Of a stretch of 32,000 nucleotides of DNA, positions 5,156 to 32,000 are shown one piece after another (within the stretch, counting starts at the first letter, position 1; each line of letters begins with the position of its first letter). Source of the stretch: Candidatus Saccharimonadota bacterium (lineage in GTDB: Bacteria; Patescibacteriota; Saccharimonadia; Saccharimonadales; UBA4665); the NCBI GenBank assembly GCA_016699935.1, contig CP064992.1, forward strand, positions 90,001 to 122,000. Direction: 5' to 3'. A model generated the notes under the pieces. The model searched no databases and had not been told where the DNA came from. It saw only the letters and a program-made list of their open reading frames with translations. A program made the translations under genes and the position numbers.

Positions 5156-5348
5156 CCCCGCGCCGAATATCGCAAAACCTATCGCGAATATACTGCTTTT
5201 TCTTGTATATGTATTCTTTTAAATTTTTGCGACTCCACGCATGGCTGTTTTTCCTTTTTTAAAATCAATTCTGAGTTCATTTTCCCACAAAAGTTATCGG
5301 CTTGCAAGGAGGTTGGTGGTGGCATGGCTCTTTGCTCCTCGTTGCCAC

Positions 5349-5384
5349 AAAACGCCCCGCTGGTAAACCATGCGGGGCGTTTTT
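5349..5384 (-). terminator. hairpin terminator downstream of 5408-7945
   Basis: AAAACGCCCCGC-tggtaaaccat-GCGGGGCGTTTT. The box GAGCGGTCAGTC at 5391-5402 lies between the hairpin and the stop codon. Confidence 0.7.
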
Positions 5385-5407
5385 AAGAGTGAGCGGTCAG
5401 TCTTGCT

Positions 5408-7945: not shown

Positions 7946-8110
7946 ATTTCTTCCTCCGAAAGATGTTATGTCTATATACTATACTATTGGTTACATTATG
8001 TCAATTTTCTTTTTTAATTGCTTATGCTTACCACCTGAAGATGGTAATAATTCGGCTAATTTGATATGTCAGATAATTTGTCATGAAAGCGTAAATGATA
8101 CAGCCGGTCT

Positions 8111-8267
8111 TATATAACCTGAGTCTCAAAACCCCCAGGTTGTTATCCCAGCGAACGCTGGGATTCGGATAAATGGACTGGATTCCCGCCGAGTTTATCC
8201 TCAATTCGGTTGGGGGCAGGAATGACATAAGTACTAGTAGGGCCAGTTTTGAGACTCAAGTTATATA
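8111..8267. mobile_element. MITE-like non-autonomous element, copy A
   Basis: The terminal inverted repeats are TATATAACCTGAGTCTCAAAAC and GTTTTGAGACTCAAGTTATATA. Internal hairpins are ATCCCAGCGAACGCTGGGAT and TTCCCGCC...GGCAGGAATGAC. It has no ORF and is roughly 85% identical by eye to 14428-14575. Confidence 0.75.
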
Positions 8268-8328
8268 CAGTTATTGTGGGCATTCGTTTGTACGAGTGGC
8301 TGGGTGCTATGCGCTATTTTTGCTCAAC

Positions 8329-8367
8329 GCAAAACCCCGCATCTTTTTACAGAAAGCGGGGTTTTGC
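8329..8367 (-). terminator. hairpin terminator downstream of 8409-10622
   Basis: GCAAAACCCCGC-15 nt loop-GCGGGGTTTTGC. The box GAGCGGTCAGTC at 8373-8384 lies between the hairpin and the stop. Confidence 0.65.
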
Positions 8368-8408
8368 GAGTTGAGCGGTCAGTCGTTACTCTTTGTAATC
8401 GATAGAGA

Positions 8409-10622
8409 TTACTCGGCTAAACGACGGCTCATGAACAACCGATAGCCTATGGCGCTCAGGACACTTACGAGTCCGAACAGTCCAATGACACTACCTGCAC
8501 CCGTGTTTGGAAGCACTTGTGTGGGAGTGGTTGGCGTTGTAAACGTAACTGATTTCACGCAGTTGGCATTAGTTTGAGCGTAGCTATCGCTGCCATTCGC
8601 AGAAAATAGTAACTTTAGACTAACGCTGAACGTACCGTCATTAGCATAGGTATGTGTTGTTGTTGTATTGTTTGTAACGAGCGGAGTCGTACCGTCGCCC
8701 CAGTTGTACGTGACCATCTTTAGGCTGGCACCGTTTTTGGCGGTATAGTCAACTTTTGCGGTTACAGTCCGGTTCGTGCCTGCAGTGAGAGTCAATGCAT
8801 CACAGCTAAACACCGGCGCCGGAACATCAGGCTTCTTAACCGTCACGTCTGCGGTGTCGCAATCATCTTTCTTATTTGGTTCACTTGGGTTCACTTCTGG
8901 TGCATTTACGCAAGCAGTATTCTTGAGCGTACCCTGGACGTATTGCATGACCTTGGCTTTCAGAGTAAATGACTTACTTTCACCTACCTTAAGACTGGGT
9001 ATGACATAGCTCCATGCGTTGCCGTCTATAGTACCAACGTTTGCACTCACGAGTGTGACGCCAGCTTCTGGCTCATCGCTCACAAGTACATTCTTCAGGT
9101 CGACTTCCCCATCGTTGGTAACTTTTACCGTGTAGGTATAGTTGTTACCCACTTCGACTTCGACTGCTTTTTTACCTTCAACCCACTTCTCTATCTTGAC
9201 ACTTGGGTTCTTGGTAGTAGTGCTAAAAGCGACCGTCTTGCTACAAGCCGCGTTTGCAGCCGGAGCTTTATCGGCACCATTCACCGTAAAGAGCATATTA
9301 GCCTTCACCGTATAAGTACCATCGGCGGCATAGGTATGCGTGCCGGTCGTACCGGTGATGACATCTTGCTTACTATCACCCCAAACGAGGGTAGTGTTCT
9401 TGTACGTCGCACCATCTTTAGCGGTGTATGTAACTTCTGCCTTCACCGTACGAGTTTGGTAGTTTGGCGTCAGCGTCAGATCATTACAGCTATAGACAGG
9501 TGTCGGGTAATCACACGTTTTATTGATAGTCACGTCGGCGGTATCGGTATAGTCAGATCCACCGTTCATAGCCTGACCAATATTGGTCAGTTTGTTTGCC
9601 CCACAGGTAAGTTTGTCGAGTGCGGGCATAGTCGCTTGAACTGAACATAGGCATTTGAACCAGGAGCGTAGTCACCAATAATCTGACCACCATTGGCGAC
9701 AACTGCGTCGCTCAGAGCCATACCACTTGGGTTAGATCCGTTAAACAGCTTGACGCTACCGGGCACAATTGCCACATTAGCTGGTAGCTGATCACGCACT
9801 ACAACACTGTTAAGTGCGGTGTTGCCAGTGTTTTTAAACTCTAGCTGGTAAGCTACCGTAGCCCCTGGTGTGGTCGAAACGGTTTCGTTCCAAACACCAC
9901 TGCCTGGAATAGCCACTTTTTTTCTGCATCGTAAAGCCAGGATTTTGCATCTTGACTTTAACTTTCAGCGTTATGACATTTGCGTACTTGAAACAGCCTG
10001 GAATTATGCCGTCAGGTTGCGAAAGACCAATTGGTGCTCCGCTCGTTACAATACTGTCGCTGAGTTTAAGACCAGCTAAGCCGGCATAATTATTATAGGC
10101 AACAGCTGAGCCTGGGACATATTGAACGCTGAATTTATTTGCGGTTGTCGGGGCAACCATGTCTACCGTGTCATACACCTCTTTAGGTGAAGCATTGTCG
10201 GCACTTACGTATGCATTTGCACGCAGTACTGTGTCTGTGACACTCGGCAGCCATACGCGGACTTTGGTGTTTTTTGCAACCCCAACACCGCTATTGTTTG
10301 TGCCGTTCAGATTATCGGCTGCATTGTTGTGTACATAGACACGCAGCAAGACTTCTTGGCCGTCTTTTACAGTCATCTGGTGTGCAAAGCCATCACTATT
10401 TGTGTTGGCTGCGTCTTTCAGTTCAAAAAATGCTCGTTCATCACCTTCACGCGGATTATCCGTCATGGAGTTGAACGTCACATGGTCGGCAGGTTGTGCC
10501 ATTGTATATGTCTGCCTACTTGGACCCCACGCGAGCGCGCTCACTGCCACGCCTATAACGCCAGCTGTGAGTAATGCACTCAGAAGAGTCTTTTTAGACA
10601 GACGAGAAAATAATTGTTTCAT
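8409..10622 (-). CDS. LPxTG-anchored surface protein (about 738 aa reconstructed), two frameshifts
   Basis: AAGGAGAG lies upstream of ATG 10622, and the signal peptide is LLSALLTAGVIGVAVSALA. Track ORFs 9834-10622, 9587-9916 and 8409-9629 join at the A7 run 9914-9920 (..TMQKK|VAIPGSGVW..) and near 9633-9640 (..AYVQFKA|TMPALDKL..). DUF11-type and PKD-like modules are present (YNWGDGTTPL..HTYANDGTFSVSL). The C-terminus has LPNTGAG, a helix and SRR. Confidence 0.8.
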
Positions 10623-10639: not shown

Positions 10640-11400
10640 TTAAATACTCCTAAAGTCATATCTCTTGACTCATGTCTTAAATTTCCATCGGTTATTCAGT
10701 TGTTAAAAAACCATTTGCTGCATACTATCCACCTCACACAGCGTATTCTAGGCCATTTTATCATATTCATAATACATTGTCAACATTATTTCACAATAAC
10801 CATTAGCGGCTTGTGAGCCCTGTCATTCCGGACTTGATCCGGAACCCAGAACTATGTTTATGGTCATTGTCATTCCGAGCATTGTCGAGGAATATCCTAC
10901 TTTTTCGCATATCGGGACAAGAAGATCTTTCGACTCCACCCACTAAAGTGAGTTCCGCTCAAGATGACACATAAACTCTTGACTCATGTCTCATGCATCT
11001 TAACTCTAATTATTAAAGTACCATCAAGCCAGATCATTACAGAACACAAGACGCAGCTAAAGCTGCTTAATTAGCGATTATCCATTCGCCATTACCCATT
11101 GTAGTTGCATCGGCTTCGCCGACATTTCCAACTCATGTCATTCCCGCGCAGGCGGGAATCCAGTCAATTTATGGTCGGCTTCTCTACACATCTTCCCACT
11201 AATCTCTTATCTCTTACTCCTTAACTCTAATTTCATGGGGTAAAGCGGGTGGTATTGGTGATTGAAGATTGAGGAGTTTAGAGACAGGCGTAGGCCTATC
11301 AATACTCACATCAATCGACAATCGACCAATACCACCACGCTAGAGCGTAACGCTTTGCTCTTACGAGCTCGCTCTCAGTCCGAGGACTGATACCCTTTTT
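10640..11400. repeat. ORF-free cluster of short palindromic/hairpin repeats and heptamer-periodic tracts
   Basis: GTCAT-headed palindromes lie at 10822-10845, 10869-10893 and 11136-11160. The last is the exact reverse complement of 30344-30368. A long imperfect inverted repeat spans 11248-11336. Reverse-strand heptamer tracts lie at about 10655-10685, 10975-11025 and 11190-11240. Confidence 0.7.
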
Positions 11401-11464
11401 GCTAGATCACCTCCTTACGGAAGTAGGGCCTCACTCACGGTTGTGAGCAAGGTACTGCTGTTGC

Positions 11465-12725
11465 CTACGCCGGGGGTGGCGGAGGCGGAGGCAGCGACGC
11501 GGACTGCGTCGGCTGCGGGGTCGGCAACGGAGCCGGGGCTCCGTTGGCGGAGGGAGGACTGGGCCACCACTGTGGGTGGGGGCCGGCGACGGCGTCGCAC
11601 GCGGCGGGCTGCCGGGTGGGATGCCGTTTCCGGAATCCCGTGGTGGCGTCGCTGGCCGCGACACCTCCGTGCCGTTGTCTGGTGACGGGCCGTTCTTCGT
11701 CGACTGGCCGGGGACCTGTCCGCGGGACTGCGGGTCTGCACCCGGGTCCTTTGCACAGGTTCCATCGTCGCCGACTGGCTTGCCCTTGTCCGGCCCCGAG
11801 GGGCAGGTCTGAACGTTGTTGTCCGTCGGTCCCGGCAGGAAGATCTGGATCAACGTGACTCCATTGCCACACCGAGCCATCACCCACACGGAACGGATGA
11901 CCTTGCCGGCCTGGTCGACGAAGTCGATTCGGACAGCCTTCCGGTCTCCCGGATTTCGTTCGTCGTGGACGACGTGACCTGACCGCTCGAAACTCCCGTG
12001 TTCACCCCGTTAGCCGGAGCCTGGTCGGGGACGATTCGGGACTTGCCGAGCGCGAGGTACATGGTTACGACGTATTCCTTGGCCTTGTCCGACGCACACT
12101 GCGCGTTGCCGAGCACCGCCTGGTCCACGTCCTGCTCGAGCAGAAGCTTGATGGCTCCTTGAAGCGTCACACGATCGAGCTGGATCTTGCCCATCCATTC
12201 CTGTGCCGCAGCGGCTGCTTGCGCGTCCGTCGTGGCATCCTGGATGGACTTGAGACCATTACTGATCCACGCAAAGTTCGCGTGGTGGTCAGGCTGCCAG
12301 GCCCAGTTCATGCAAACGACCGGTGGGGTCGTAGACGGGCTGGCCGACGCGCGCTGTCGCCGAGGGCAGCGCGGTCGCCGAGGTGGCGGTGCTGGTTGCA
12401 CCGGCGCACGCCTTCGACTGAGCTGCCTTGGCACGATCGAGGTTCGCTTGGGCACCAGCGACCTTGGCGGCTTTCTCAGCCTCGGCAGGCGAGCCGACCT
12501 CGGGAACGAGGTCAGTGGCGGCCGCCAGTGCCGCTTGGGCGTTCGTCAGAGCGAGGTGGCCTGCTGGCAGGTCATCTGGTCGCTGACGAGCGCAGCCGGG
12601 GCGGATGACGGGAGGCTGCAGGCCGACAGGCCAGCAGCGATGGAGACAGCGAGGAGGCCAGTGGCCGCCAAGCTGCTCCGGACGGAGCGCGAACTGCGGG
12701 GAACCCGCAGGTTGATCACCTTCAT
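11465..12725 (-). CDS. putative lipoprotein with Pro-rich C-terminal tail (high-GC codon usage), several frameshifts
   Basis: GAAGGAGG lies 6 nt upstream of ATG 12725. The N-terminus MKVINLRVPRSSRSVRSSLAATGLLAVSIAAGLSAC is a signal peptide with a lipobox. Coding continues through at least three frame changes (about 12550, 12330 and 11930). One change reads ..NEIRETGRKAVRIDFVDQAGKVIRSVWV... The protein ends PAPLPTPQPTQSASLPPPPPPPA. The frame path and stop were chosen by GC3 and are uncertain. Confidence 0.6.
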
Positions 12726-12736
12726 GGTTGCCTCCT

Positions 12737-13453
12737 TCAGGCTGAGGTGGTCATGGAACCGGACGCGGGCGCGGCCGGTGTGGAGCTGTGGTCGACGACC
12801 GGTGAGGTCGGGACCGGTGCGGGGGCGGGTGCCGCCGCAGGGCGAGCTGGGGCCGGAGCCGGTCCGAAGACCGGGTGGTCGGCGGACGGGGGCGGCGGAA
12901 CCGCAACGGCGCGCTGAACGCGACGTTGTTCGCGGTCGAACCGCCGGTCTTCCCTCCAGCTGCGGAAACGAGCCCTCATGCGTGAGAAAACTCGCTTTAG
13001 CGAGCGCCTCAGCCGCATGAGACGACCAGTTGAACGGCGAGGCGCGATGCCCCAACCGTTGACTTCGACCTGGTCGCGCTCGGGGCGCGATGGCCAGATG
13101 GCCATGACGAACAGGGCGACACCCAGGAGGGCGACGCTGACCATCCTCATGGTCAGGCCGATGTCGGCCGTTACGCCGCGAGTCACGAAGACCCCCGTGG
13201 TCAGTGCGACCGCGAGCGCGGCATAGCCGAGAACGGTGGTCCATCTCCGCTGGTCCATGACACCCCAGATCATGACGATCAGGGCGAGAACGGACCAGCC
13301 GGCGGTGGCCCAGTTGAGCGACATGTCGCTGGTGAGCGCGGTCTTGAGACCTGAGGTCTCAGACGGGTGCCATGCCCACCAGTTGGTCGCGAACGCGACC
13401 ATCGTAGCGAGGGCGAGTGTCGCAACCAAGCGACGTAACTCGGTGAAGAACAT
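12737..13453 (-). CDS. hypothetical integral membrane protein (4 predicted helices, Ala/Pro-rich tail), high-GC codon usage
   Basis: AAAGGGGAG lies upstream of ATG 13453. The product starts MFFTELRRLVATLALATMVAFATNWWAW... with four hydrophobic spans and an Arg-rich then AP-rich tail. Its stop lies 11 nt before the lipoprotein start, giving an operon. The longer track ORF extending to 13825 runs into low-GC DNA and is not credible. Confidence 0.65.
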   Translation of the reverse strand: MFFTELRRLVATLALATMVAFATNWWAWHPSETSGLKTALTSDMSLNWATAGWSVLALIVMIWGVMDQRRWTTVLGYAALAVALTTGVFVTRGVTADIGLTMRMVSVALLGVALFVMAIWPSRPERDQVEVNGWGIAPRRSTGRLMRLRRSLKRVFSRMRARFRSWREDRRFDREQRRVQRAVAVPPPPSADHPVFGPAPAPARPAAAPAPAPVPTSPVVDHSSTPAAPASGSMTTSA

Positions 13454-14427
13454 GCTGATCTCCCCTTTCATGGGAGTTGTGGTTCGTAGTCGGCAGGTGC
13501 CGGCTACGGGCATCTCTGTCCCCGGGTGGGTCCAGACGATTCCTTTCTGTCGGGGGCGTATGAACGGACCCGATTCGAGGACTAACTCCCGTGGAGGAGA
13601 TGGCCGGGGTAGCGATGAATGTGGGGCTTCATCGGTACCACGGCCACCTCCTGCCTTGGAAAGAGATTGCATGCGTACAAACAGTTTTTTTACCTTTCTA
13701 GCAAAAAGGTTTTTAGTTACACTCATCAAAAAGACAAGCGGAGCTAAAGCGTTACAGTTTTCTGCTGCTAGGAGCGGCGGAGTATGTGAGAGGATTATCC
13801 TTCCACATGGCTCGACACTACTCAACCAGAGCAGAGTGCTACGGGTAATACTAGGGTACAGGCGTTCGGATGCTAGCGGCTATCATTGCACTGCTAGCCA
13901 TGGCTCGTAGAGATAAATACTAGCCATGTAATGCTAGCTACGTGCATTTCTACCTCTGTTATCCAAACTTCTGTACGGTATCACCCAGTAGCACTCTGCC
14001 CTAGCCTTTCTAGCGACAGGTGTTTTCTCCACTCCCGAGCGAACTATCCCCAGGGCCATGACAAATGAGCCATAGGCGAACGAGGCGATAGCCGAGCTTT
14101 AGGGCAAGAGGAGAGCTGTTTCGGATTTATTCCGAAACAGCGAGGAGAGCAAGGCTCCTTTTATGTTCCAAAATGATCTGACTTGTTAACGTACCCCTGT
14201 CGTAAGACTCCCGGGCGCGTAGGCTATAACAGCGCAAAATAGCAGGCGGTAATCCGTCTGCATCTGTTACTGTTTGTTGCCCACCTGTTAAAAGGGTTTG
14301 ATCCCTTTGCACTCGGTTATGGAGTTATCTCTGTCGCCCCACAACAAAGGATGTACACATATTAGCATCTATTTTGATTATTGTCAATACTTAACGTAAG
14401 CTTTATGATGCTTTGTCTATAGTGTTT

Positions 14428-14583: not shown

Positions 14584-15864
14584 CTATTTTAAATTGTCTT
14601 TTGCTACAGGACTCCTGGCGAAGCGGAAGCCAAAGGTGCTGCCTTTGCCCTCTACGCTTTCAAACAGTATGCTGCCGCCCTGGACAACAACCACCTTTTT
14701 GGCCATATATAATCCTAACCCCGTCCCATCGGGTCGGGTGCGTTTGGCGTTTTCGGCACGATAAAACTTGGTAAAAAGATGTCGTTGTTCGGCGCGCGGC
14801 ACGCCTATGCCGCTATCTTTGACTGTAAATTCCACTGCCGAGGGCGTCTCTTTTAGCTCAATCAAAATTGTGCCACCCATTGGGGTGTAGTAAATAGCAT
14901 TATCGATAAGGTTCATCACCACCTGGTGCATCTTACCTTCATCGAGCTCAACAAGGCTAAAGGTAGACGGCATATCCCACGTAACCGTAATATTTTTTGC
15001 CTTGGCCGATTCATGCAGCTGAGCCACCTCTTGGTCAACGATGACACGCAGGTCAGTTGGCTGGGCCTCAATGACAAACTTACCCGTGTTCAACCGTGAT
15101 AGATTAAGCAAGTCGGCAATGAGGTTCACCATACGTTGACTACTGAGAAACGACTGCTTGAGCAGCTCTTCTTGCTGTGGCTTTAAGGGGCCTGCGTCGC
15201 CCTCCAGCACCATACTCAGGTAGCCCTTGACGCTCGTCAGTGGCGTACGAAGCTGATGAGAAGCCATAGAAATAAACTCGTCCTTGGTCTCATCGAGCTT
15301 CTTGAGCTTCTCGTTTGTCGCCCGGATTTTTCGCGTAGCCTCATCCACTCGTTGTTGCAGGGTCGTATTGAAAGCCTGTATCTCCTGGAAATGCTGCGCA
15401 TTCTGGATTGCTACAGCTAGTTCACCTGCTGTGATGGTCAAGAGATGTCGGTCCTGAGAGCTGTAGGGTTCACCATTTTTTTTGTGCCCAATCAGGATAT
15501 GCCCGACGATTTCCTTTTGTGTCTTCAAACGAAGGCTGAGTGCAACCTGTGCGCGAACCAACAAAAGATGGAGCGAGTTCTGCGAATCCGTTTCCTCAAC
15601 CTCAATGAGCTCTCGACGCTGTAATGAGAGCTGTTCACGAAAACTCTCCACATGAGGAGTCAGATGATGGTTCGGAAACGAAAGAGGCTTTTTATCATGT
15701 ACAAGAACATACTCTATAAAAGACGGCTTAAGAGCATTGGCTAAAACAGTGCGCGTGCCATCAAGTATTTTAGCCAGACTCGTTTCCACCGCCACAATAT
15801 CGCCAATCTTGTCAAGAACTTCCTGGAAATCATAGCTTTCGCGATAAAACAGCTGGTTAGTCAC
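14584..15864 (-). CDS. sensor histidine kinase cytoplasmic portion (GAF-like, HisKA, HATPase_c)
   Basis: H-box ISMASHQLRTPLTSVKGYL, N-box VVMNLIDNAIYYT, G-boxes VKDSGIGV and GTGLGLYMAK. The preceding roughly 170 aa look GAF-like (..IVGHILIGHKK..DRHLLTITAGELAVAIQNAQHF). Confidence 0.9.
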   Translation of the reverse strand: MTNQLFYRESYDFQEVLDKIGDIVAVETSLAKILDGTRTVLANALKPSFIEYVLVHDKKPLSFPNHHLTPHVESFREQLSLQRRELIEVEETDSQNSLHLLLVRAQVALSLRLKTQKEIVGHILIGHKKNGEPYSSQDRHLLTITAGELAVAIQNAQHFQEIQAFNTTLQQRVDEATRKIRATNEKLKKLDETKDEFISMASHQLRTPLTSVKGYLSMVLEGDAGPLKPQQEELLKQSFLSSQRMVNLIADLLNLSRLNTGKFVIEAQPTDLRVIVDQEVAQLHESAKAKNITVTWDMPSTFSLVELDEGKMHQVVMNLIDNAIYYTPMGGTILIELKETPSAVEFTVKDSGIGVPRAEQRHLFTKFYRAENAKRTRPDGTGLGLYMAKKVVVVQGGSILFESVEGKGSTFGFRFARSPVAKDNLK

Positions 15865-16736
15865 TCGATCAAAAAGTGCTTCATGTACTGGAACGATATG
15901 GCGAGTGGCATTAGCAATAGAGTGGATAGTATTTGCCGGAGCGTCTCTCTGTCTGGGCCATCAAAAAATACATTAATCACGCCGAAGAGTCCCGCTACAT
16001 AGATTCCAACCATACTGCCAACGACTAGGATGTATCCAACCGAACGAGCGAGAGCGGCACGTATATCAAAGAGTTTCTGTGCAACAATTGCGTACGCAAT
16101 TATGCTCGCGAAAGCGAATGTATACAGCGGGCTAATCGTGATAAAGAAAGTCGTTTTAAAAATTGGAGTAATGGCAAAATTGGTTATGGGTACAACGATC
16201 CAGACTAGTATCGACGCCAGCAAAAGAATAAATAGCTGATTTCGTAACTTGCCACGGGCTGAACGGAATTTGTGCACCAGTCTGTGAAAAGCCATTCCGA
16301 TCGAGAATGCAGCATGAGATATAAACAATCCCATTCCTAAGGCAGCTTGGGTAACTGGAGTACCCTCAGAAACCGAAACATTTTGTAAGACAAAAGGCGA
16401 CATAACTGCACCTGCAGTGATAGCACTATATACCAGATATATGACACAGCTGCGGCGTGAATATTTCCAGTGCGTCTCAGGAAATGTATGCGCAAACAAA
16501 TAGAAAAACGTGTTTTGCATAACGACCGAGAAAAATAATAATCGAACAATCAACAATATATGCGGCGAGTCCAATAAGACGATGCTGAGATAGCTTAACA
16601 AAGCCCACATAAGTGAAGCAACACCGATGATTGCAAACAAGATATTAGTAAGGTTGCGCCGCCCTTTGAGAACAACAAACAGTACAAGCACAAATTGGGC
16701 TAAACTGCTCATGATGACGCTTATCGTTAGTATCAT
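15861..16736 (-). CDS. polytopic membrane protein (7-8 helices), probable N-terminal sensor domain of the downstream kinase
   Basis: The 291-aa product is almost entirely hydrophobic helices. Its stop overlaps the GTG start of the kinase ORF (GAGTGACT). This is either translational coupling or an indel splitting one roughly 717-aa kinase. Confidence 0.7.
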   Translation of the reverse strand: MILTISVIMSSLAQFVLVLFVVLKGRRNLTNILFAIIGVASLMWALLSYLSIVLLDSPHILLIVRLLFFSVVMQNTFFYLFAHTFPETHWKYSRRSCVIYLVYSAITAGAVMSPFVLQNVSVSEGTPVTQAALGMGLFISHAAFSIGMAFHRLVHKFRSARGKLRNQLFILLLASILVWIVVPITNFAITPIFKTTFFITISPLYTFAFASIIAYAIVAQKLFDIRAALARSVGYILVVGSMVGIYVAGLFGVINVFFDGPDRETLRQILSTLLLMPLAISFQYMKHFLIE

Positions 16737-20542: not shown

Positions 20543-21672
20543 ATGACATTCATCGCGCAACGCTTGAGCTATTTCGATAGCAGCGACTTTCGGGACGCTA
20601 TAAGTAAACAGAGCCTACTAACAGACCCCGTTGACCTCAGTATTGGTGTTCCAGAGGAATTAACACCCGAACACATCAAGGCGGCGGGGATCCGAGCTAT
20701 TACGGAAGACAAGACAACATATCTCCCAGCAAACGGGTTGCTTGAACTAAGGGAGGCGCTCGCCCACAAACTCCAAACCGAGAACAGCATTCCCTGCACG
20801 CCCGAAAGCGTCACGGTCGTTCCTGGACTGACTACTGGGCAGCTTCTAGTGTACCTGGCGGTTGTCGATCCGGAAGATGAAGTTATCGTCTTCGACCCCT
20901 ATTACCCACCCTATCCTCATCTCGCTAAGATGGTCGGTGCGAGCGTCACCTATGTTTCAACACTACCGACGTTTCAACCTGATCTGGCTGCTCTCGAGGC
21001 AAGCATAACCGATAAAACCAAATTGATTGTCATAAACAGTCCCAATAACCCGAGCGGTGCTGTCTATCCAGAGGAAACACTCCGGGCTATCGCTGCGCTC
21101 GCCGAAAAAAAAGCAACATACTAATCGTCTCGGATGAAATCTACGAATCATTCAGCTATGATACTCCTCATTTCAGCATCGGTAGCATCTACCCCAACAC
21201 CATCACTGTGAATGGCTTTTCGAAGGAGTACGCTATGACTGGCTGGCGCCTCGGCTATATCGCTGGACCACAAGAAATCATCGATGCTATCAATGAATTG
21301 CAGCAGTACGTTGTTATGTCAAGCTCCTCCATCGCCCAACATGCAGCATTGGCAGCGCTAAAACAAAAGCCGACGCATATCGTTGAAAAATATCGGATCA
21401 AACGCGATTACCTTGTTAATAGCCTAAAAGCTGCTGGTTACCATGTGATGGGCGCCGAGGGAGCATTTTATGTTTTCGTCAAAGCGCCACACAACCTGAC
21501 CGATGTCGAATTTGCAGAGCGAGCCAGCGCACGAGGGCTCATCGTCGTTCCTGGTAGGGCATTTTCACAGCTTCATGGTTACATACGTATTTCGTACGGC
21601 GCAAGTATGGACACACTACGACGAGGGGTTTCGATTCTCGAAGATATTGCCCAAGAGTTAAAAGATGCGTAA
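20543..21672 (+). CDS. class I/II pyridoxal-phosphate-dependent aminotransferase, one frameshift at an A8 run
   Basis: Motifs are INSPNNPSGAVY and NGFSKEYAMTGWRLGYIAGP (PLP-lysine motif). Track ORFs 20543-21124 and 21208-21672 join through ..LAEKK|NILIVSDEIYESFSYD.. at the A-run 21106-21113. Confidence 0.85.
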
Positions 21673-21707: not shown

Positions 21708-22073
21708 ATGAAGATTGCAATCGTAGAAGACGATCTGGCTATAAGCATGATGTATAGGATCAAGTTTGAGGCAGAGGGTTTCGCTGTCGAAACTGCAGCT
21801 AACGGTAAGCTAGGACTTGAGCTGATCGAATCCATGAAGCCAGATATAATCCTGCTGGACCTCATGATGCCCGTAATGACTGGTCACGAGATGCTGGCTG
21901 AATTACGCAAAACTAGCTGGGGCAAGGATATCAAAGTAATAATCCTGACTAATTCTGGCGAAGAACAGGCTCCGCCGAATCTAAAAGAACTGGACATCCG
22001 CCGTTACATCGTAAAAGCCGAAATGACTCCCCGCCAAGTTGCCGAAATGGTCAAAACCGAACTCGCCGCCTAA
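21708..22073 (+). CDS. stand-alone response-regulator receiver domain protein (CheY-like, 121 aa)
   Basis: MKIAIVEDD...PDIILLDLMMPVMTGHEML...VIILTN...YIVKAE carries the acidic pocket, the phospho-Asp (LLDLMMP), and the T and K signature positions. There is no output domain. Confidence 0.9.
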   Translation: MKIAIVEDDLAISMMYRIKFEAEGFAVETAANGKLGLELIESMKPDIILLDLMMPVMTGHEMLAELRKTSWGKDIKVIILTNSGEEQAPPNLKELDIRRYIVKAEMTPRQVAEMVKTELAA

Positions 22074-22150: not shown

Positions 22151-22759
22151 CTAGGGTGTATCTGGGTCGTCTGGGTTGTTCGCTAGTTGCCACTTTAACA
22201 GCGCTAATTCACGCATGGAATCTTGATATTCATCAACGAATTCCAGATATTCGCGTTTAGACCCAAATAAATCCAGAATTTTTCTGTGTGCAGCCAGCCC
22301 GGCGACGCTTGCAAACGTCGATAATACTGTATACTCGAATACGGCCATGCTAGATATTTCTCTGGGTTCAAGTGAATATAGCGTGAAATGTGGTGCAAAT
22401 AAGCGTCGGCATTGATTCGTGAAGCCTTGTATCGCCCCTGAAAAAAGACCACCAACCCGTGCATATCGATTATTGAAATACATAACGTAACCCGTTGTCA
22501 CTCTTCGCATCAGTTTTTCGACACCACGGTCACTTTCTTGGTACAGCAGTAAGTGAAAATGATTTGGCATAAGACAATACGCGAGCAGCTGGACTTCTGA
22601 ACCAATAACGGTAGCTTTGTGCCGGTTTGCTTTATTGTAATTCTCGCCAATCAAATACTTTTTGAGTAAGCCAAGAAAACCGTGTAATCCTGGGCGTCAA
22701 GGAATATTACACGTTTCTCCACGCCCCTGTTATACACATGGTAATACGTTTTTCGGCAT
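22151..22759 (-). pseudogene. REP-associated tyrosine transposase (RAYT, IS200/IS605 TnpA-like), multiply frameshifted
   Basis: Motifs lie across several frames: YYHVYNRGVEKRVIF, LLAYCLMPNHFHLLLYQ, GYVMYFNNRYARVGGLFQGRYKA and YLHHISRYIHLNPEK. At least four frame changes separate ATG 22759 from the stop at 22151. Confidence 0.8.
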
Positions 22760-24848: not shown

Positions 24849-25658
24849 TTATTTCGTGACACTTGCTTCGGCGGCGCGGATGGTGTTTTCGAAAAGGGCG
24901 CAAATGGTCAGCGGTCCCACACCGCCTTTGGTAGGAGTAATGGTCAAATCGTCACGTTCGTAGACATCCGGGTCAAGATCGCCAACGGTTTTACCCTTTT
25001 CACCTGCCACACCTGCATCGACGACAACGGCACCTTGTTTAATCATATCTGAGGTTATGAGTCCGGCTCGCCCAGTGGCTGTAATGATGACATCTGCTTC
25101 GAGCAAAAGCTCTTTTGTATTTGGTGTTTTGCTATGGATGAGTACAAAGTTGTAATCACTTTTGGTAAACATGTCTATGAGAGGTGCACCGACTAGTTTA
25201 CCGCGACCGACGAGGGCAATCCGCGACTTTTCGAGGTCGACATTATATCCAGCGAGAAGCCACAGTATGGCCATCGGTGTCGCTGGCGTATAAGGTGCAT
25301 ACTCGCCAAGACCATCGACATCTTTTTCTGGGGCTATCATATTGACGACCTCATCTGTCTCGCTAGCATCTGCTAGTGGTAATTGTACGATAATCCCATA
25401 CACACTCGGGTCGGCGTTCAAAGTTTCGAGAAGTTGCTTTACGTTTGCTTGCTCGACAAAATGCACATCAACCGCTGCACCGATATCCTCACCGTAGCGC
25501 TTTTTCATGCCCATATACGTTAGGCTAGGCCCGTGCTCTAGCGTATAGACTATTGCTAGCTTAGGCTGCACCCCCAGTGACTGCGTGAGTCGCCGCACTT
25601 CTTTGGCTTGGCGTTCTTTGATAAAGCCTGCTAGTTCTGATCCATTGAGTATTTTCAT
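24849..25658 (-). CDS. folD: bifunctional methylenetetrahydrofolate dehydrogenase/cyclohydrolase
   Basis: Motifs are GIIVQLPL, EKDVDGL, ALVGRGKLVGAPL, ADVIITATG and TPTKGGVGPLTICALFENT. The stop lies 2 nt before the murI start. Confidence 0.9.
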   Translation of the reverse strand: MKILNGSELAGFIKERQAKEVRRLTQSLGVQPKLAIVYTLEHGPSLTYMGMKKRYGEDIGAAVDVHFVEQANVKQLLETLNADPSVYGIIVQLPLADASETDEVVNMIAPEKDVDGLGEYAPYTPATPMAILWLLAGYNVDLEKSRIALVGRGKLVGAPLIDMFTKSDYNFVLIHSKTPNTKELLLEADVIITATGRAGLITSDMIKQGAVVVDAGVAGEKGKTVGDLDPDVYERDDLTITPTKGGVGPLTICALFENTIRAAEASVTK

Positions 25659-26171
25659 GCCCCCATTGTAGCAGAGCAGATATAGGAACTATTAATAAAA
25701 AGCTTCTCGGATGGTTGGTATTTATTGGATGGCAATCTTGAGGACTAGTACAGCTGAAATTGAGCTGTGTTATAGAATGAAACTGTGAAAGCGATCATTA
25801 AGAGCTACCACGATCCTGATGCTGATTTTGTAAACTTTACCCCAAAAAAATACAATTGGTCGTGCTTACTGAATCTCGCTGCAGGGCATGAAGATGGTTA
25901 GGATGGGGAGTAATTTGATATCATAGAGTACTCACCTCAGAAAGTAGCCGAAATGGCAGCACATGACGGCGTTGTTAACGAACGACACACTTTAAAAGCA
26001 TCTGATTTCAGAAAAATTTAAGCACTTTATCGAAAAATATGTAAACAGCTATGCAATAGGTGATCCATGGCAAGGTGTAGCCAATAATCTTTGTCGACTT
26101 GGCCATAGGGAATTTGAAGACGACTTAGAATCTGCGTAACCAAAAAACCCCAAAGTGGAGAGTTCTTGATT

Positions 26172-26248
26172 TGGAGGGCCAGGTGGGACTTGAACCCACG
26201 ACATTCTGCTTAAGAGGCAGACGCTCTAACCAGCTGAGCTACTGGCCC
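26172..26248 (-). tRNA. tRNA-Lys (anticodon CUU), CCA encoded
   Basis: The reverse strand reads GGGCCAG TA GCTC AGCTGGTTA GAGC G TCTGC CTCTTAA GCAGA ATGTC GTGGG TTCAAGT CCCAC CTGGCCC T CCA. It folds into a full cloverleaf of 77 nt. Confidence 0.9.
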
Positions 26249-26358
26249 ATAGGGGCGTATTCTTTGCTGCGATGGTAGGTATGTGGGTTGATACCAAAAC
26301 ACCCCTGTTTCTACAAGACCGAGATTATGATGGGACTCGTACATGGTAGACTATACAT

Positions 26359-27120
26359 ATGAAGAAAATTACACATGAGTCACTCAAGAAAATGAATCTC
26401 ATTGCCGGGTTTTTGCATCTAGCACAAGCGATAACAGTGCTCGTACTGAGTAAATCTTTTGCTATACCTGTTTCTGGTAATTATCTCGAGTTTGATAAAG
26501 CAACCGAATCGCTTCTGCCTGCTACGACGACACTTTTCAACGTCCAACTTCCTTGGCTTATTGCTGGCTTCTTTTTCCTGTCTGCCCTGTTTCATTTTCT
26601 AATTGCCTTCGTCTACAACAAAAAGTACAACGCAGATCTCACGCTCGGCATCAATAAGTTTCGGTGGGTAGAGTACGCTTTATCTGCCAGTGTCATGATG
26701 GTCGCCATAAGCATGCTTGTCGGCATTTATGATTTCAGCAGCCTACTCATGATCTTCGGCCTGACCGCCATCATGAATCTGCTGGGTCTTGTCATGGAAG
26801 TCCACAACCAGACCACCAAGAAAACTGACTGGCTCAGTTTCAACCTCGGCACCCTAGCCGGACTGTTCCCGTGGGTGGTCGTTGCTTTCTACATGTGGCT
26901 CGGTGCAGCCAATGGCAGTAGCGCCCCAACCTTTGTATATTGGATTTTTGTCTCAATCTTCGTGTTCTTCAGTTGTTTCGCCCTAAACATGGTGCTGCAG
27001 TACAAGCAGATCGGCAAATGGCGCGATTACATCTACGGCGAACGGGCCTATATAATCCTCAGTCTTGTGGCAAAATCTTTGCTCGCCTGGCAGGTCTTCG
27101 GCGGCACTCTCCGACCGTAA
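26359..27120 (+). CDS. heliorhodopsin (7-TM retinal protein, 253 aa)
   Basis: It matches heliorhodopsin 48C12 closely as I recall it: GFLHLAQ (His), SALFHFLIA (His), FRWVEYALSASVMM (Glu counterion) and GERAYIILSLVAKSLLAWQVFGGTL (Schiff-base Lys in SLVAKS). Seven hydrophobic spans are present. Confidence 0.9.
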   Translation: MKKITHESLKKMNLIAGFLHLAQAITVLVLSKSFAIPVSGNYLEFDKATESLLPATTTLFNVQLPWLIAGFFFLSALFHFLIAFVYNKKYNADLTLGINKFRWVEYALSASVMMVAISMLVGIYDFSSLLMIFGLTAIMNLLGLVMEVHNQTTKKTDWLSFNLGTLAGLFPWVVVAFYMWLGAANGSSAPTFVYWIFVSIFVFFSCFALNMVLQYKQIGKWRDYIYGERAYIILSLVAKSLLAWQVFGGTLRP

Positions 27121-27187: not shown

Positions 27188-28206
27188 ATGAATGGAACCA
27201 AGGTCACTATTAACCCACATGATTTATACATTGTTACCGGCACTGCGCACCCGAAATTAGCAGAAGAAGCAGTGGCCGCCATGGGCTTACGGCTCGGACC
27301 AGTCAATAGAAGGCGCTTTGCCAATAGTGAGCTATACGTACAGTACGAGCAATCCGTACGCGGCAAACATGTTATCATCATCAAACATTTGCGCATGATT
27401 ACAAACGAAACTTGTCTGTGAATGATGCTCTCATGGAAACCATGCTGCTTATAGACGCAGCCCGCCGCTCTTCCGCCCGTGAAATTACCGTCGTTATACC
27501 CTACCTCGGCTACAGCCGCCAGGACCGTAAGGCGAAAGGGCGTGAGCCTATCTCGGCAGCTGTGGTTACGCACATGCTCGAAAACAGCAGGAGCACACCG
27601 TTTGGTCACCATAGACATGCACTCTTCGCAGGTACAGGGGACATTCCATGGGCCGTTCGATCATCTTATTGCCGAGCGGCTCATTTTAGATGGCCTAAAA
27701 GCCGAGATGGGCGACCGAGACCCAGAACTCTTTGCGATTGTTTCGCCGGATACTGGGCGAGCAAAAGATGCTGAGCGAGCAGCTGATATCCTCGGTGTGC
27801 GTCTGCGGCACCTTCAAAAAACGCGCGACCCACGCGACAGCAGCAAACTTATCCGCCCCAAAAACTACAGGGCGTCGAAGGCCGTATATGCTTCATGACA
27901 GATGACATGATAGACACCGCCGGTACACTTATAACGGCCGCCGAGACGCTTCGCAAATCTGGAGCAACAGCTGTTATTGCCAGCGCTACACACGCCCTAT
28001 TGTCCGACCCGGCAATAGAACGACTAGAGGGAGGCGCTATAGATAAACTAATCGTAACAGATACGGTACCGGTGGATTATGCGAAAAAAGTGCTTGGCGA
28101 CAAGCTTACCATCATACCTGTTGCGCCTTTGATCGCAACAGCTCTCCATGAAATCGCCACTGGTGGTTCAGTATCTGACCTCTTTGAAGGCCGAAACTAC
28201 TCGTAG
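27188..28206 (+). CDS. prs: ribose-phosphate pyrophosphokinase, three frameshifts
   Basis: Motifs are spread over alternating frames: [69 protein letters not shown] and [13 protein letters not shown]. The shifts are near 27385, at 27573-27576 (A4) and near 27865 (C4/A5). Confidence 0.85.
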
Positions 28207-28237
28207 CCAGAGCCGGTTTGCGTACGTCGAGTACACT

Positions 28238-28474
28238 TTAGTTATTGCCTATGGTTTTCGTAAGCAGGTGGCGAGCGGCTGCAGAATGGACACATTCTGC
28301 CGGTGAGAGATGGATGCTCAGGGTTGGGCCAACCGTAATTACGTCTACCGTACACTGTAGCGGCTGAATTTGCTGGGATAATGCTACCTGTTGTGCCGCA
28401 ACGGGTGCCGTGGAAGCAACCACGTATACCGCCACGTAAATAACCGCACATAGCCGCCCCACCAAATGTCTCAT
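28238..28474 (-). CDS. hypothetical small secreted protein (78 aa)
   Basis: It has a signal-peptide-like N-terminus (MRHLVGRLCAVIYVAVYVVASTAPVAA). I see no SD sequence and recognise no family. Confidence 0.3.
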   Translation of the reverse strand: MRHLVGRLCAVIYVAVYVVASTAPVAAQQVALSQQIQPLQCTVDVITVGPTLSIHLSPAECVHSAAARHLLTKTIGNN

Positions 28475-28528
28475 AGCTTACACTGTAAGCTATTTTAGCC
28501 GTTGGTCAAGCTTTGTTTTTTGCAGAGA

Positions 28529-29140
28529 TTATATAAAGACAATTTGGCTGCCCGGGACATAGCGTTCGTAGAACTGGCCAACCGTGAGTATGCCGTCTGT
28601 GTCATCCCACGGATTGCTTTGCTCAAGTTTGAACATTTCCATAGCAAGCTTGCATGCGTAGATATACCCACCAGAAGGTTTGATGATATCCAGAAACTGA
28701 CTTACACCCGGTATGTCGAGCTCAGCCATTCGCTTTCGCGTCATGTGGGTGGCAAAAGTTCCCATACCAGATACCACACCTGCGATTTCTGGCATGTGCA
28801 TGTCAGGTTTACCGCTCATGGCAATGACCAGTACGTCGTAGCTGACAGTTTCGCCAGAATCAAGTTGGAGCGTTTTCTCGGCAGAGCGAACGCTTACCAC
28901 CTCCACCTGTAGGTGTTTGACCCCTCTTCGCAGTAAGCTTGCGGGGGGTTTACAGAGCTGACGCACTCGGTATCGCCCAAAGATCACACACAAAAAACCA
29001 GGCTGGTAATAGTGTGTAGTGGCGGGGTCAATCACCATCACATCGTGACCCGACTTCACTCGTTAATTTGCAAGCATTATCCCAGTCGTCCCGGCTCCAA
29101 CCATGACGATGTGCTTGTTTTTGGTCTCTTCTTAGCTCAT
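28529..29140 (-). pseudogene. remnant of an FAD/NAD(P)-dependent pyridine-nucleotide-disulfide oxidoreductase joined to a DsrE-like C-terminal region; two in-frame TAA codons
   Basis: The N-terminal part reads ATG-AGC-TAA-..KHIVMVGAGTTGIMLAN-TAA-RVKSGHDVMVIDPATTHYYQPGF (Rossmann dinucleotide fold, SQR/NDH-2-like). The C-terminal part YIYACKLAMEMFKL..DGILTVGQFYE..IVFI resembles DsrE-family tails. At about 200 aa it is too short for either family. The TAA codons lie at 29132-29134 and 29063-29065. Confidence 0.5.
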
Positions 29141-29277
29141 CGCAAAGAATCTTCTTACACACATCGTAGCACCGCATACATATACGCTCAAGCATAGACA
29201 GTCTCAGGAAACTCTCATGTCAGACTTGTACTATGTACCTGGCAACAAGAAGCATAATATATAAGGAGAGCGTGCCT

Positions 29278-30441: not shown

Positions 30442-31194
30442 ATGAGACTACTTCTCGTCGAAGATGAACCAAAAATCGCCCGTGCTATCAAAATGGGTCT
30501 GGAGCAAGAACGCTCTACGGTAGAGGTTTACCACGACGGTCCGAGCGGTCTTGCCGCAGCACTGGGAGATGACTACGACGCCATTATCCTCGACCGCATG
30601 CTGCCCGGCGGCATGGACGGCCTCGAAATATGTGAAAAAATCCGTGAAAATAGCGTGAAAACACCGGTGCTCATGCTGACGGCTAAAGGACAAGTCCGCG
30701 ACCGCGTCAATGGACTCAATGCCGGAGCCGATGACTACCTGGTCAAACCATTTTCGTTTGAGGAACTGCTCGCCCGCCTGCGCGCCCTGACTCGCCGACC
30801 TCATGAGGTTAAAAGCACCATGCTCACTGCTGGCGACCTTAGCCTCGACCCTGTCACGTACGACGTCCGCCGCGCCGGCAAACCCATCGCCCTTTCCCAG
30901 ACCGAATATTCACTGCTCGAGTACCTCCTGCGCAACAAAGACCGGGTCTTAAGCAAAGACAACATCATCAACCACGTCTGGGACTTTGATGCCGATATTT
31001 TGCCCAACACTGTCGAGGCATACATTGGCTATCTGCGTAATAAAATAGACAAACCGTATCCCAAAAGACCACGCATTCACACGGTGAGGGGCTTTGGCTA
31101 CAAACTAGGGAAATTGACCAAAAATGAAGCACTTATTTCACTCGGCCACCTTACGTCTGACGGCATGGTACACACTCATTCTCCTCCTCATTAG
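30442..31194 (+). CDS. OmpR-family response regulator (receiver plus winged-helix)
   Basis: MRLLLVEDEPKIA..AIILDRMLPGGMDG..LMLTAK..DDYLVKPF is the receiver. LSQTEYSLLEYLL..TVEAYIGYLRNKI..IHTVRGFGYKL is the DNA-binding domain. The last roughly 25 codons overlap the kinase start and are probably an indel artefact. The true stop is likely near 31116. Confidence 0.85.
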   Translation: MRLLLVEDEPKIARAIKMGLEQERSTVEVYHDGPSGLAAALGDDYDAIILDRMLPGGMDGLEICEKIRENSVKTPVLMLTAKGQVRDRVNGLNAGADDYLVKPFSFEELLARLRALTRRPHEVKSTMLTAGDLSLDPVTYDVRRAGKPIALSQTEYSLLEYLLRNKDRVLSKDNIINHVWDFDADILPNTVEAYIGYLRNKIDKPYPKRPRIHTVRGFGYKLGKLTKNEALISLGHLTSDGMVHTHSPPH

Positions 31195-32000
31195 CCTACT
31201 TTTTAGTGTGATTGTTTTCAAATCGCAACTACCGAATTTCAGCGAGGTTTTGGCCCGGGCCATCTACAAAAACAGCAACTATTTACCGAGAGTGACTTGC
31301 TAGAAGAATGGCGAGAAGAACGGCTGAACAAAACCAAGTCGAATCTTGTCGGTCAACTGATGCTTTTAACGGAGTAGTTTTGGCATCGGGTGCTGTATGT
31401 AGTTACCTACTAGCCAGACGAACGCTACGACCTGTCGAGGAAGCTATGGAAGCACAGTCGCGGTTCAGTAGTGATGCTGCCCATGAACTGCGTACCCCAC
31501 TGACCATCATGCAGTCTGAAATAGAAGTCGGGTTGCGCGATAAAAAAGCAACCAAACAGTCACATAACGAGCTCCTAGCAAGTAGCCTCGACGAGGTGCA
31601 GCGCATGCGTACGCTAACAGATCGCTTGCTACTGCTGGCCAACAACCATGATATGACCCTCCTGCCGACTAATCTAGAAAATGCTGCTATCGAAGCCGTA
31701 AATCATGCCATACCCTTTGGCTCAGGCAAAAAGATTCGTATCGAGAATAGCGTAGGCACTTTGCAAGTTATCGGGAACGCTGATAGCCTCATTGATGTAC
31801 TAGTTATACTGCTAGACAATGCCGTCAAATACAGCCCGGCGAAGTCTACCATCACTCTTTCGGCTAGCGCTAAAGGGCAAACACGCCGAGATGCGAATAA
31901 CTGATAGCGGCGTGGGAATAGCCCCGTCTGATTTACCACATATTTTCGACCGTTTTTACCGGGCAGATGCTTCACGCAGCGCCCAAAACATCGCCGGGCA
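31124..32000 (+). CDS. sensor histidine kinase (partial, continues beyond window end), frameshifted
   Basis: ATG 31124 starts MKHLFHSATLRLTAWYTLILLLISLLFSVIVF (TM1). The H-box is FSSDAAHELRTPLT and the N-box is LLDNAVKYSP. After a shift near 31885 it reads ITDSGVGIAPSDLPHIFDRFYRAD. At least three frame changes are present. Confidence 0.8.

Follow-up and report, generated by a model that had tools for sequence, protein, structure and literature searches.

Here we report on a heliorhodopsin (HeR) gene in a 32,000-nt stretch of DNA (the window) from a Candidatus Saccharimonadota bacterium (assembly GCA_016699935.1, contig CP064992.1, positions 90,001 to 122,000). The intact open reading frame (ORF; Table 1) encodes a protein of 253 amino acids (aa), which we assign, at the level of the family and with a probability of about 0.85, to the heliorhodopsins of the Saccharibacteria clade. 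The gene had been noticed in an examination of the letters without database searches (the sequence-only reading). That identification holds good, but the finding is not new and adds no further feature to the literature.

The assignment is based on profile and structure matches. The product matched the Pfam family Heliorhodopsin (PF18761) over profile positions 1–242 of 242 with 324.5 bits (cut-off 26.7; E = 4.8e-97) and the NCBIfam equivalog NF038020, "heliorhodopsin HeR", with 329.7 bits (cut-off 100); no other Pfam family matched at E ≤ 1. To judge from these scores, the profile matches are not due to chance. Both were far above the cut-offs, and the profile check proposed in the sequence-only reading has thus borne out its identification; the best match was Heliorhodopsin and not a non-rhodopsin family with seven transmembrane helices. 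Among solved structures, the best sequence matches were TaHeR (6is6; E = 3e-75) and 48C12 (6su3, 6uh3, 9ljj; E about 1e-58), to which the protein is 50% and 47% identical by global alignment.

The gene coordinates and motifs quoted from the letters alone were all recovered in the 253-aa translation: GFLHLAQ (residues 17–23), SALFHFL (75–81), FRWVEY (101–106) and GERAYIILSLVAKSLLAWQVFGGTL (227–251). The glutamate counterion, the two histidines and the Schiff-base lysine named at that stage all align with 48C12 and TaHeR. The functional residues identified by this alignment are H20, H79, E105 (counterion), S235 and K239 (Schiff-base lysine); R102, W103, Y106, S109, E147 and E228 are likewise conserved in the same global alignment. 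All functional residues are invariant across an alignment of 34 Saccharibacteria-type homologues. The residues that line the fenestration (F161, T165, G168, F204, A208) are present, and S205 occupies the position of an asparagine kept in 48C12 (position 207), TaHeR and Cv06; serine is found there also in 27 of the 34 clade members. The protein does not fit the type-1 microbial rhodopsins (PF01036), as it gave no match to that profile, carries SLVAK instead of DxxxK and has an N-terminus predicted to lie inside.

A 100% identical protein is stored in GenBank as QQS18609.1, "heliorhodopsin HeR [Candidatus Saccharibacteria bacterium]", on a single contig of 1,226,308 bp. Among 8,000 candidates scored, 6,706 were homologues at E ≤ 1e-10, several of them named as HeR from Saccharibacteria or Saccharimonadales. 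A scan of species-representative genomes yielded 80 HeR loci (58–89% identity), nearly all in metagenome-assembled genomes (MAGs) of Saccharibacteria/Patescibacteria from activated sludge, lakes, soils, bogs and streams. The Saccharibacteria-like origin of the DNA, recognized from the letters alone, is therefore confirmed both by the name that NCBI gives to the identical protein and by its relatives, which are almost all Saccharibacteria MAGs.

Novelty cannot be claimed for a HeR in this lineage, since the same protein is annotated (QQS18609.1) and the topic has been published (PMC9166423, PMC9296517). Chiriac et al. (2022; PMC9166423) screened 1,326 candidate phyla radiation (CPR) genomes, found 80 HeRs in Saccharimonadia, listed SLVAK among the commonest HeR lysine motifs and suggested that they take part in the response to oxidative stress. 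Bulzu et al. (2021; PMC8612252), in whose work Saccharibacteria are treated as monoderm, reported that HeRs occur only in monoderms, where they are associated with two-component and oxidative-stress genes, Patescibacteria included, and that they have links with histidine kinases in a number of phyla, Patescibacteria among them. Jaffe et al. (2022; PMC9296517) found rhodopsin-bearing Saccharibacteria to be devoid of blh, proposed that the retinal comes from actinobacterial hosts, and cited a fast uptake of retinal by TaHeR via an opening in the protein. Because of these three papers, the two questions raised in the sequence-only reading, where the chromophore comes from and what is being sensed, have already been posed and partly addressed for the lineage.

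Predicted structure and function

An AlphaFold2 model of the protein, built from 34 homologues (mean predicted local distance difference test score, pLDDT, 73.7; predicted template modelling score, pTM, 0.72), has seven helices, with the beta hairpin typical of HeRs (strands 35–46 and 51–63) between helices 1 and 2. E105 is located within helix 98–120 (helix 3). K239 lies within helix 224–247 (helix 7) and aligns with K241 of 48C12 and K238 of TaHeR, in agreement with the earlier placement of the lysine of SLVAKS in transmembrane helix 7. The first ten Foldseek matches in the PDB were all heliorhodopsins, with template modelling (TM) scores of 0.78–0.85 and E values down to 5.5e-18; the TM score on 6is6 was 0.85. 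Type-1 rhodopsin structures followed after the HeR entries, at E values of about 1e-3 and TM scores of about 0.66. The loops carry 10 lysine and arginine residues on the N-terminal side vs. 3 on the opposite side, and by the positive-inside rule this excess predicts a cytoplasmic N-terminus, i.e. the inverted topology of the family, as had been expected.

It is most likely that the protein is a retinal-scavenging photosensor that signals via its cytoplasmic loops to a partner protein. To judge from homology and the alignment, K239 in helix 7 would carry all-trans-retinal in a protonated Schiff base, with E105 in helix 3 as the single counterion and H20 and H79 completing the proton-accepting cluster. 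Light would isomerize the retinal and produce a long-lived signalling state with no net ion pumping, as is the case in 48C12, TaHeR, AbHeR, TfHeR and OcHeR, and this state would alter the activity of the partner protein through the cytoplasmic loops. Exogenous retinal should be needed, because Saccharibacteria lack retinal synthesis according to the literature; the cell would obtain it from its host or community, and it would enter the protein via the lateral fenestration, which is lined by the conserved residues listed above. No domains for retinal or carotenoid synthesis were found in the ORFs of at least 110 aa in the window, which agrees with the earlier remark that the window contains no retinal-synthesis gene. 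For HeRs of CPR bacteria, the published proposal is a response to light or oxidative stress.

Several points weigh against this reading of the protein. The absence of blh and crt genes covers the 32-kb window and is otherwise taken from the literature; for retinal binding, photocycle and the lack of pumping, the extrapolation is from proteins with 47–50% identity; the confidence of the structural model is moderate (mean pLDDT 73.7); and many close relatives come from activated-sludge and soil MAGs, where exposure to light is uncertain. Moreover, no partner could be named when the three ORFs on each side of HeR were clustered in 82 loci, where no neighbour family occurred in more than seven. 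The most frequent families were cupin-like proteins (7 loci), VKOR-like membrane proteins (6) and prs (6), followed by RmuC-like proteins, rhodanese, ClpB-like ATPase and ABC exporter (5 each). This low recurrence would fit the published view of HeRs as promiscuous light-dependent regulators; in published work (PMC11109279 included), the targets that HeRs bind and regulate are glutamine synthetase, photolyase or an ABC transporter, depending on the organism.

A different function, that of a light-harvesting or ion-transporting device, is unlikely. The protein would then either transport protons, as the viral V2HeR3 does, or be a two-antenna pigment with exogenous xanthophylls drawn from the surface of the host, for which one can cite the presence of all five residues that reportedly make up the carotenoid-binding fenestration, the replacement of the conserved asparagine by the smaller serine (27 of 34 clade members) and the attachment of Saccharibacteria to hosts, the known ones being Actinobacteria (PMC9296517). 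However, pumping is absent from TaHeR and 48C12, the closest characterized relatives, the HeRs that do transport form a viral subfamily without the fenestration motif, the antenna proposal is a docking-based preprint, and the window contains no pointer to energy coupling. The fenestration residues of HeRs are those reported in a preprint (bioRxiv 10.1101/2025.11.27.691015), and their intactness would be compatible with the uptake of exogenous retinal but also with an exogenous carotenoid antenna of the kind proposed in a recent preprint.

The physiological role of HeRs remains a matter of debate, and it is a curiosity that an organism unable to make retinal should have a retinal protein; both points have already been published for this lineage. 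The present gene has a modest practical value: as an intact HeR of a closed genome of 1.23 Mb, apparently from a wastewater or activated-sludge community, it may be used as a representative for expression or, if a related strain is cultivated, for co-culture work.

Genomic context and descent

The window was compared with the other members of a set of 82 HeR loci, among which L001 (CP064993.1), L002, L003 and L063 are the closest relatives. The features next to the gene are given in Table 1.

Table 1. Coordinates of HeR and adjacent features (positions in the window)
Feature	Position	Strand	Basis and remarks
folD	24849..25658	-	Pfam; in conserved murD–murI–folD block upstream of HeR
Non-coding gap from folD to 3' end of tRNA-Lys, 513 bp, 40% GC	25659..26171		no Rfam match besides tRNA
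Terminator-like hairpin and T-run right after 3' end of tRNA-Lys	26148..26160	-	consensus scan
tRNA-Lys (CTT), divergent from HeR	26172..26248	-	ARAGORN; Rfam tRNA, 74.8 bits
Candidate extended -10 element TGGTAGACT (TGnTAnACT)	26344..26352	+	conserved in window, L001, L002 and L003
Heliorhodopsin (HeR) coding sequence, intact, 253 aa, ATG start	26359..27120	+	ORF list; Pfam, NCBIfam and PDB matches
prs (ribose-phosphate pyrophosphokinase)	27188..28206	+	ORFs; tblastn vs. L001 prs; alignment with four intact orthologues

The gene order of L001 is the same as that of the window (Y1-transposase-like gene, murD, murI, folD, tRNA-Lys, HeR, prs, response regulator, histidine kinase), and the order around HeR is largely common to L002, L003 and L063 also. 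HeR occupies the same place in all four genomes, with 85–89% identity to the window, and the flanking housekeeping genes have diverged to a like degree (folD, 90–91%; prs segments, 73–98%). Compared with the orthologues, HeR has a nonsynonymous divergence (dN) of about 0.09, while synonymous sites are saturated (proportion of synonymous differences, pS, 0.66–0.79), which puts dN/dS at 0.05 or less. This comparison shows that HeR is a long-standing, vertically inherited resident under strong purifying selection and not a recent insertion at the neighbouring tRNA. In the distant relatives L004 and L005 (74% identity), HeR is located within 5 kb of folD–murI–murD, beside a TetR–fasciclin gene pair.

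The loci differ in the segment between folD and tRNA-Lys, which in L001 holds about 6 kb of genes (TetR, fasciclin, CHAP, APH). As the TetR–fasciclin pair is found also in L004 and L005, the gap in the window is more readily taken for the scar of a deletion than the L001 segment for an insertion; a tblastn search with the genes that occupy this place in the relatives found no gene remnant in the gap. In the window and in L001, the minus strand encodes the tRNA-Lys beside HeR, whereas in L002 (100% identical) and L003 (96%) it is encoded on the plus strand. The small tRNA-Lys segment has therefore been inverted between close relatives, with HeR–prs remaining fixed.

The region upstream of HeR is unconserved except for TGnTAnACT, whose spacing from the ATG does not vary between the window, L001, L002 and L003. 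In the window, TGGTAGACT ends 7 nt ahead of the first base of the ATG, and the start codon lacks a Shine-Dalgarno sequence. Because of this arrangement, an extended -10 promoter is suggested, and the HeR mRNA may be leaderless. The gene prs starts 67 bp after the HeR stop codon; ahead of it are GGGGAGG, a Shine-Dalgarno sequence of its own, and a TATACT box that is conserved. A consensus scan found no terminator between the two genes, and the spacer contains no stable hairpin and folds no better than shuffled sequence in three genomes. The description of HeR as monocistronic in the sequence-only reading is therefore unproven; the gene has a promoter-like element of its own, but neither a terminator nor a stable hairpin separates it from prs.

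The HeR ORF is intact, unlike prs, whose segments lie in four frames due to three single-base indels relative to four intact orthologues, at about 27381 (-1, base missing in ATCATCATC), 27581 (+1, A-run) and 27862 (-1, A-run). The genes for enolase (855–1746) and an aminotransferase (20543–21672) are also split across frames. Since two of the three prs indels are in A-runs and the 1.23-Mb genome is a single contig, the splits are probably due to consensus errors of long-read assembly and do not mark pseudogenes.

It is quite unlikely that the HeR of this clade regulates the adjacent phosphoribosyl pyrophosphate (PRPP) synthetase encoded by prs and would thereby couple light to nucleotide salvage. 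The two genes are on the same strand, 67–270 bp apart, in five of five clade genomes (the window, L001, L002, L003 and L063) despite saturated synonymous divergence and have no terminator or stable hairpin between them; in L046, which represents a second, distant lineage (67% HeR identity), prs is located two genes downstream. There is also a precedent in published work, in which HeRs bind enzymes encoded beside them (glutamine synthetase, photolyase). However, the adjacency is limited to one genus-level clade and one other locus of the 82, prs is absent from the ten recurrent HeR neighbour classes of PMC11109279, and it has its own conserved -10-like box and Shine-Dalgarno sequence. The adjacency alone is weak evidence because gene order in small genomes is generally conservative.

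An extended form of this proposal, in which HeR is a light switch for PRPP synthetase that gates the nucleotide salvage of the epibiont with retinal of the host, and possibly with a carotenoid antenna, via the outward-facing fenestration, is very improbable. The conserved adjacency, the lack of a terminator and the intact fenestration residues are compatible with it, but nothing positively requires it. If true, it would amount to light-gated nucleotide salvage in an epibiont that is unable to make nucleotides de novo and obtains its retinal from an actinobacterial host.

The sequence-only reading had correctly noted a tRNA gene about 110 bp from HeR (tRNA-Lys, 110 bp from the ATG) and prs directly downstream (67 bp), but its hint that the tRNA may be the integration site of HeR is not supported, given the lack of an att repeat, the normal GC content and the synteny with relatives at saturated divergence. 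That HeR is the cargo of a mobile element integrated at tRNA-Lys, and hence a recent horizontal acquisition, is most improbable. Apart from the short distance in the window, this possibility draws on an excess of tRNAs near HeR, which are found, nearly always upstream, within 150 bp in 6 of the 82 loci (1.2 tRNAs expected at mean density) and within 1 kb in 14 (7.9 tRNAs expected), and on a duplication of the 3' end of tRNA-Lys about 170 bp away in L001 and L003. Because of this extra copy, the tRNA-Lys site appears to have been a target of insertion. However, the extra copies enclose only about 170 bp, with HeR outside, and the excess of tRNAs falls into a few lineages. In the window, the 3' end of tRNA-Lys, the usual side of integration, is directed away from HeR, towards folD, and its 28 nt occur only once in the 32 kb when up to three mismatches are allowed. 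For the 16 tRNAs located at most 1 kb from HeR in the 82 loci, no tail repeat that brackets HeR was found, no integrase domain was found near HeR, and a search of IMG/VR viral contigs with the conserved peptide patterns found no relative. The GC content of HeR (47.4%) is close to that of the window (49.3%). HeR–prs adjacency is kept across genomes with saturated synonymous sites, the identity of HeR (85–89%) tracks that of folD (90–91%) and prs, and L004 and L005 still have HeR in the vicinity of folD–murI–murD and beside TetR–fasciclin.

A tRNA-linked element and other features

A conserved three-hairpin element, about 95 nt long (core GGTGAG-hairpin-GCAAGG), is present in related loci (L001:9627-9901, minus strand; L003:9596-9872, plus strand; L030:6838-7110, minus strand; L082-L201). 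When metagenome contigs were scanned for the core pattern GGTGAGNNNTGCCNGTGGCANNNNGCAAGG, at least 120 stretches matched. In L001 and L003, the tRNA-Lys beside HeR is followed by a terminator-like hairpin, a spacer, a copy of the variable loop and the 5' strand of the T-stem, and then the insert, which begins right after T54 and is followed by the rest of the T-loop, the 3' strand of the T-stem, the 3' strand of the acceptor stem and CCA. The element is thus located inside the T-loop of a partial copy of the tRNA 3' region (variable loop to CCA), downstream of an intact tRNA of the same type; in L030, the same arrangement follows tRNA-Glu. Among the matches listed, 99 instances had full flanks; 50 of these have a tRNA upstream on the same strand (median gap about 75 nt; 25 anticodon types), whereas in 27 the tRNA lies downstream and in 21 no tRNA is close by. 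In L141, the tRNA and the element are separated by 4.2 kb of copper-resistance genes.

Covariation gives strong support to the three hairpins. In the alignment, 96.4% of the cells are paired and 23 of 34 pairs have compensatory changes; the covariation score is 0.548, vs. 0.083 or less in slid controls, and none of 500 shuffles reached the observed values. No Rfam family matches the element, and no recombinase recurs near it. It could be a miniature mobile element that restores the tRNA, an arm of an integrative element, or an RNA gene. A covariance-model search of the window found nothing credible, and since the best score was only 15.8 bits, the element is taken to be absent from the window. 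This tRNA-linked element may be of more interest than the HeR finding.

Two further observations concern HeRs elsewhere. The Saccharimonadales contig DASTXH010000031.1 (L037 and L056) contains two HeR paralogues about 54 kb apart. Saccharibacteria-type HeRs (67–71% identity) are also present on contigs binned as Burkholderiaceae, Conexibacteraceae and Dormiibacterota (L015, L043, L062), which probably reflects binning errors.

Within the window, positions 22151–22654 encode a 167-aa fragment of an IS200-like Y1 transposase with a weak Pfam match. As it has the same position relative to murD in L001, L002 and L003, this copy is old and fixed and not an active element. Downstream of prs, before the next conserved gene (28207–29232), there is a 176-aa fragment of a DsrE/pyridine-nucleotide-disulphide oxidoreductase gene, which in L003 and L063 encodes 383–491 aa and belongs to a cluster of three genes, one of them for a Cys-rich protein. 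This interval also lacks the NUDIX gene of L001, L002 and L063.

Three two-component units are located at most 12 kb away from HeR, namely a 7TM-HisKA/GAF histidine kinase (14584–16736), a stand-alone receiver (21708–22073) and an OmpR-type regulator with a kinase (30442–31904). The last of these holds its place downstream of HeR in L001, L002 and L063. Three consecutive large surface proteins with DUF11, DUF7507 and PKD repeats are encoded on the minus strand (3353–9629), and one of them has a sub-threshold match to an LPXTG anchor (19.5 bits vs. 20).

Positions 11350–13650 form an island of 60–74% GC in a genome of about 48% GC, with long overlapping ORFs on both strands. The GC content at third codon positions shifts in phase as if one minus-strand gene had been frameshifted, and no Pfam family matched. 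The largest ORF (362 aa) has seven homologues, all unnamed, of which the identical one is IPL68_00620, a hypothetical protein. The island was considered as a clue to an actinobacterial host, but with seven unnamed homologues it offers none.

Comparison with known rhodopsins

The closest characterized protein is TaHeR of the Thermoplasmatales archaeon SG8-52-1 (6is6, 7u55), with 50% identity over 244 aligned residues. Its residues H23, H82, E108, S112, S234 and K238 correspond to H20, H79, E105, S109, S235 and K239 of the window protein, and the two are alike also in their equal length, the beta hairpin between helices 1 and 2 and the fold (TM 0.85). They differ in the host, which is archaeal for TaHeR and a CPR bacterium for the window HeR, and at the fenestration, where Y164 and N204 of TaHeR are replaced by F161 and S205. 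The founding actinobacterial HeR, 48C12 (6su3, 6uh3), is 47% identical (Foldseek TM 0.78–0.82). All of its residues H23, H80, E107, S237, K241, R104, W105, Y108, E149 and E230 are conserved, whereas N138, Q213, N207 and C166 correspond to T136, M211, S205 and T165 in the window HeR.

The SacR type-1 rhodopsins (Jaffe et al. 2022, PMC9296517) share with the window HeR the phylum and the dependence on exogenous retinal. They belong to another family, however, being outward proton pumps with a DTS motif and an outside N-terminus, whereas helix 7 of the window HeR carries SxxxK and not DxxxK.

The published HeRs of Saccharimonadia (PMC9166423, PMC8612252) agree with the window HeR in lineage, SLVAK motif, reversed topology (predicted for the window HeR) and small fermentative genomes. 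Genes for a histidine kinase and a response regulator lie within 10 kb of HeR, as noted for Patescibacteria (PMC8612252). There is no substantial difference between the window HeR and those surveyed, to which it adds one more member, from a closed genome of 1.23 Mb.

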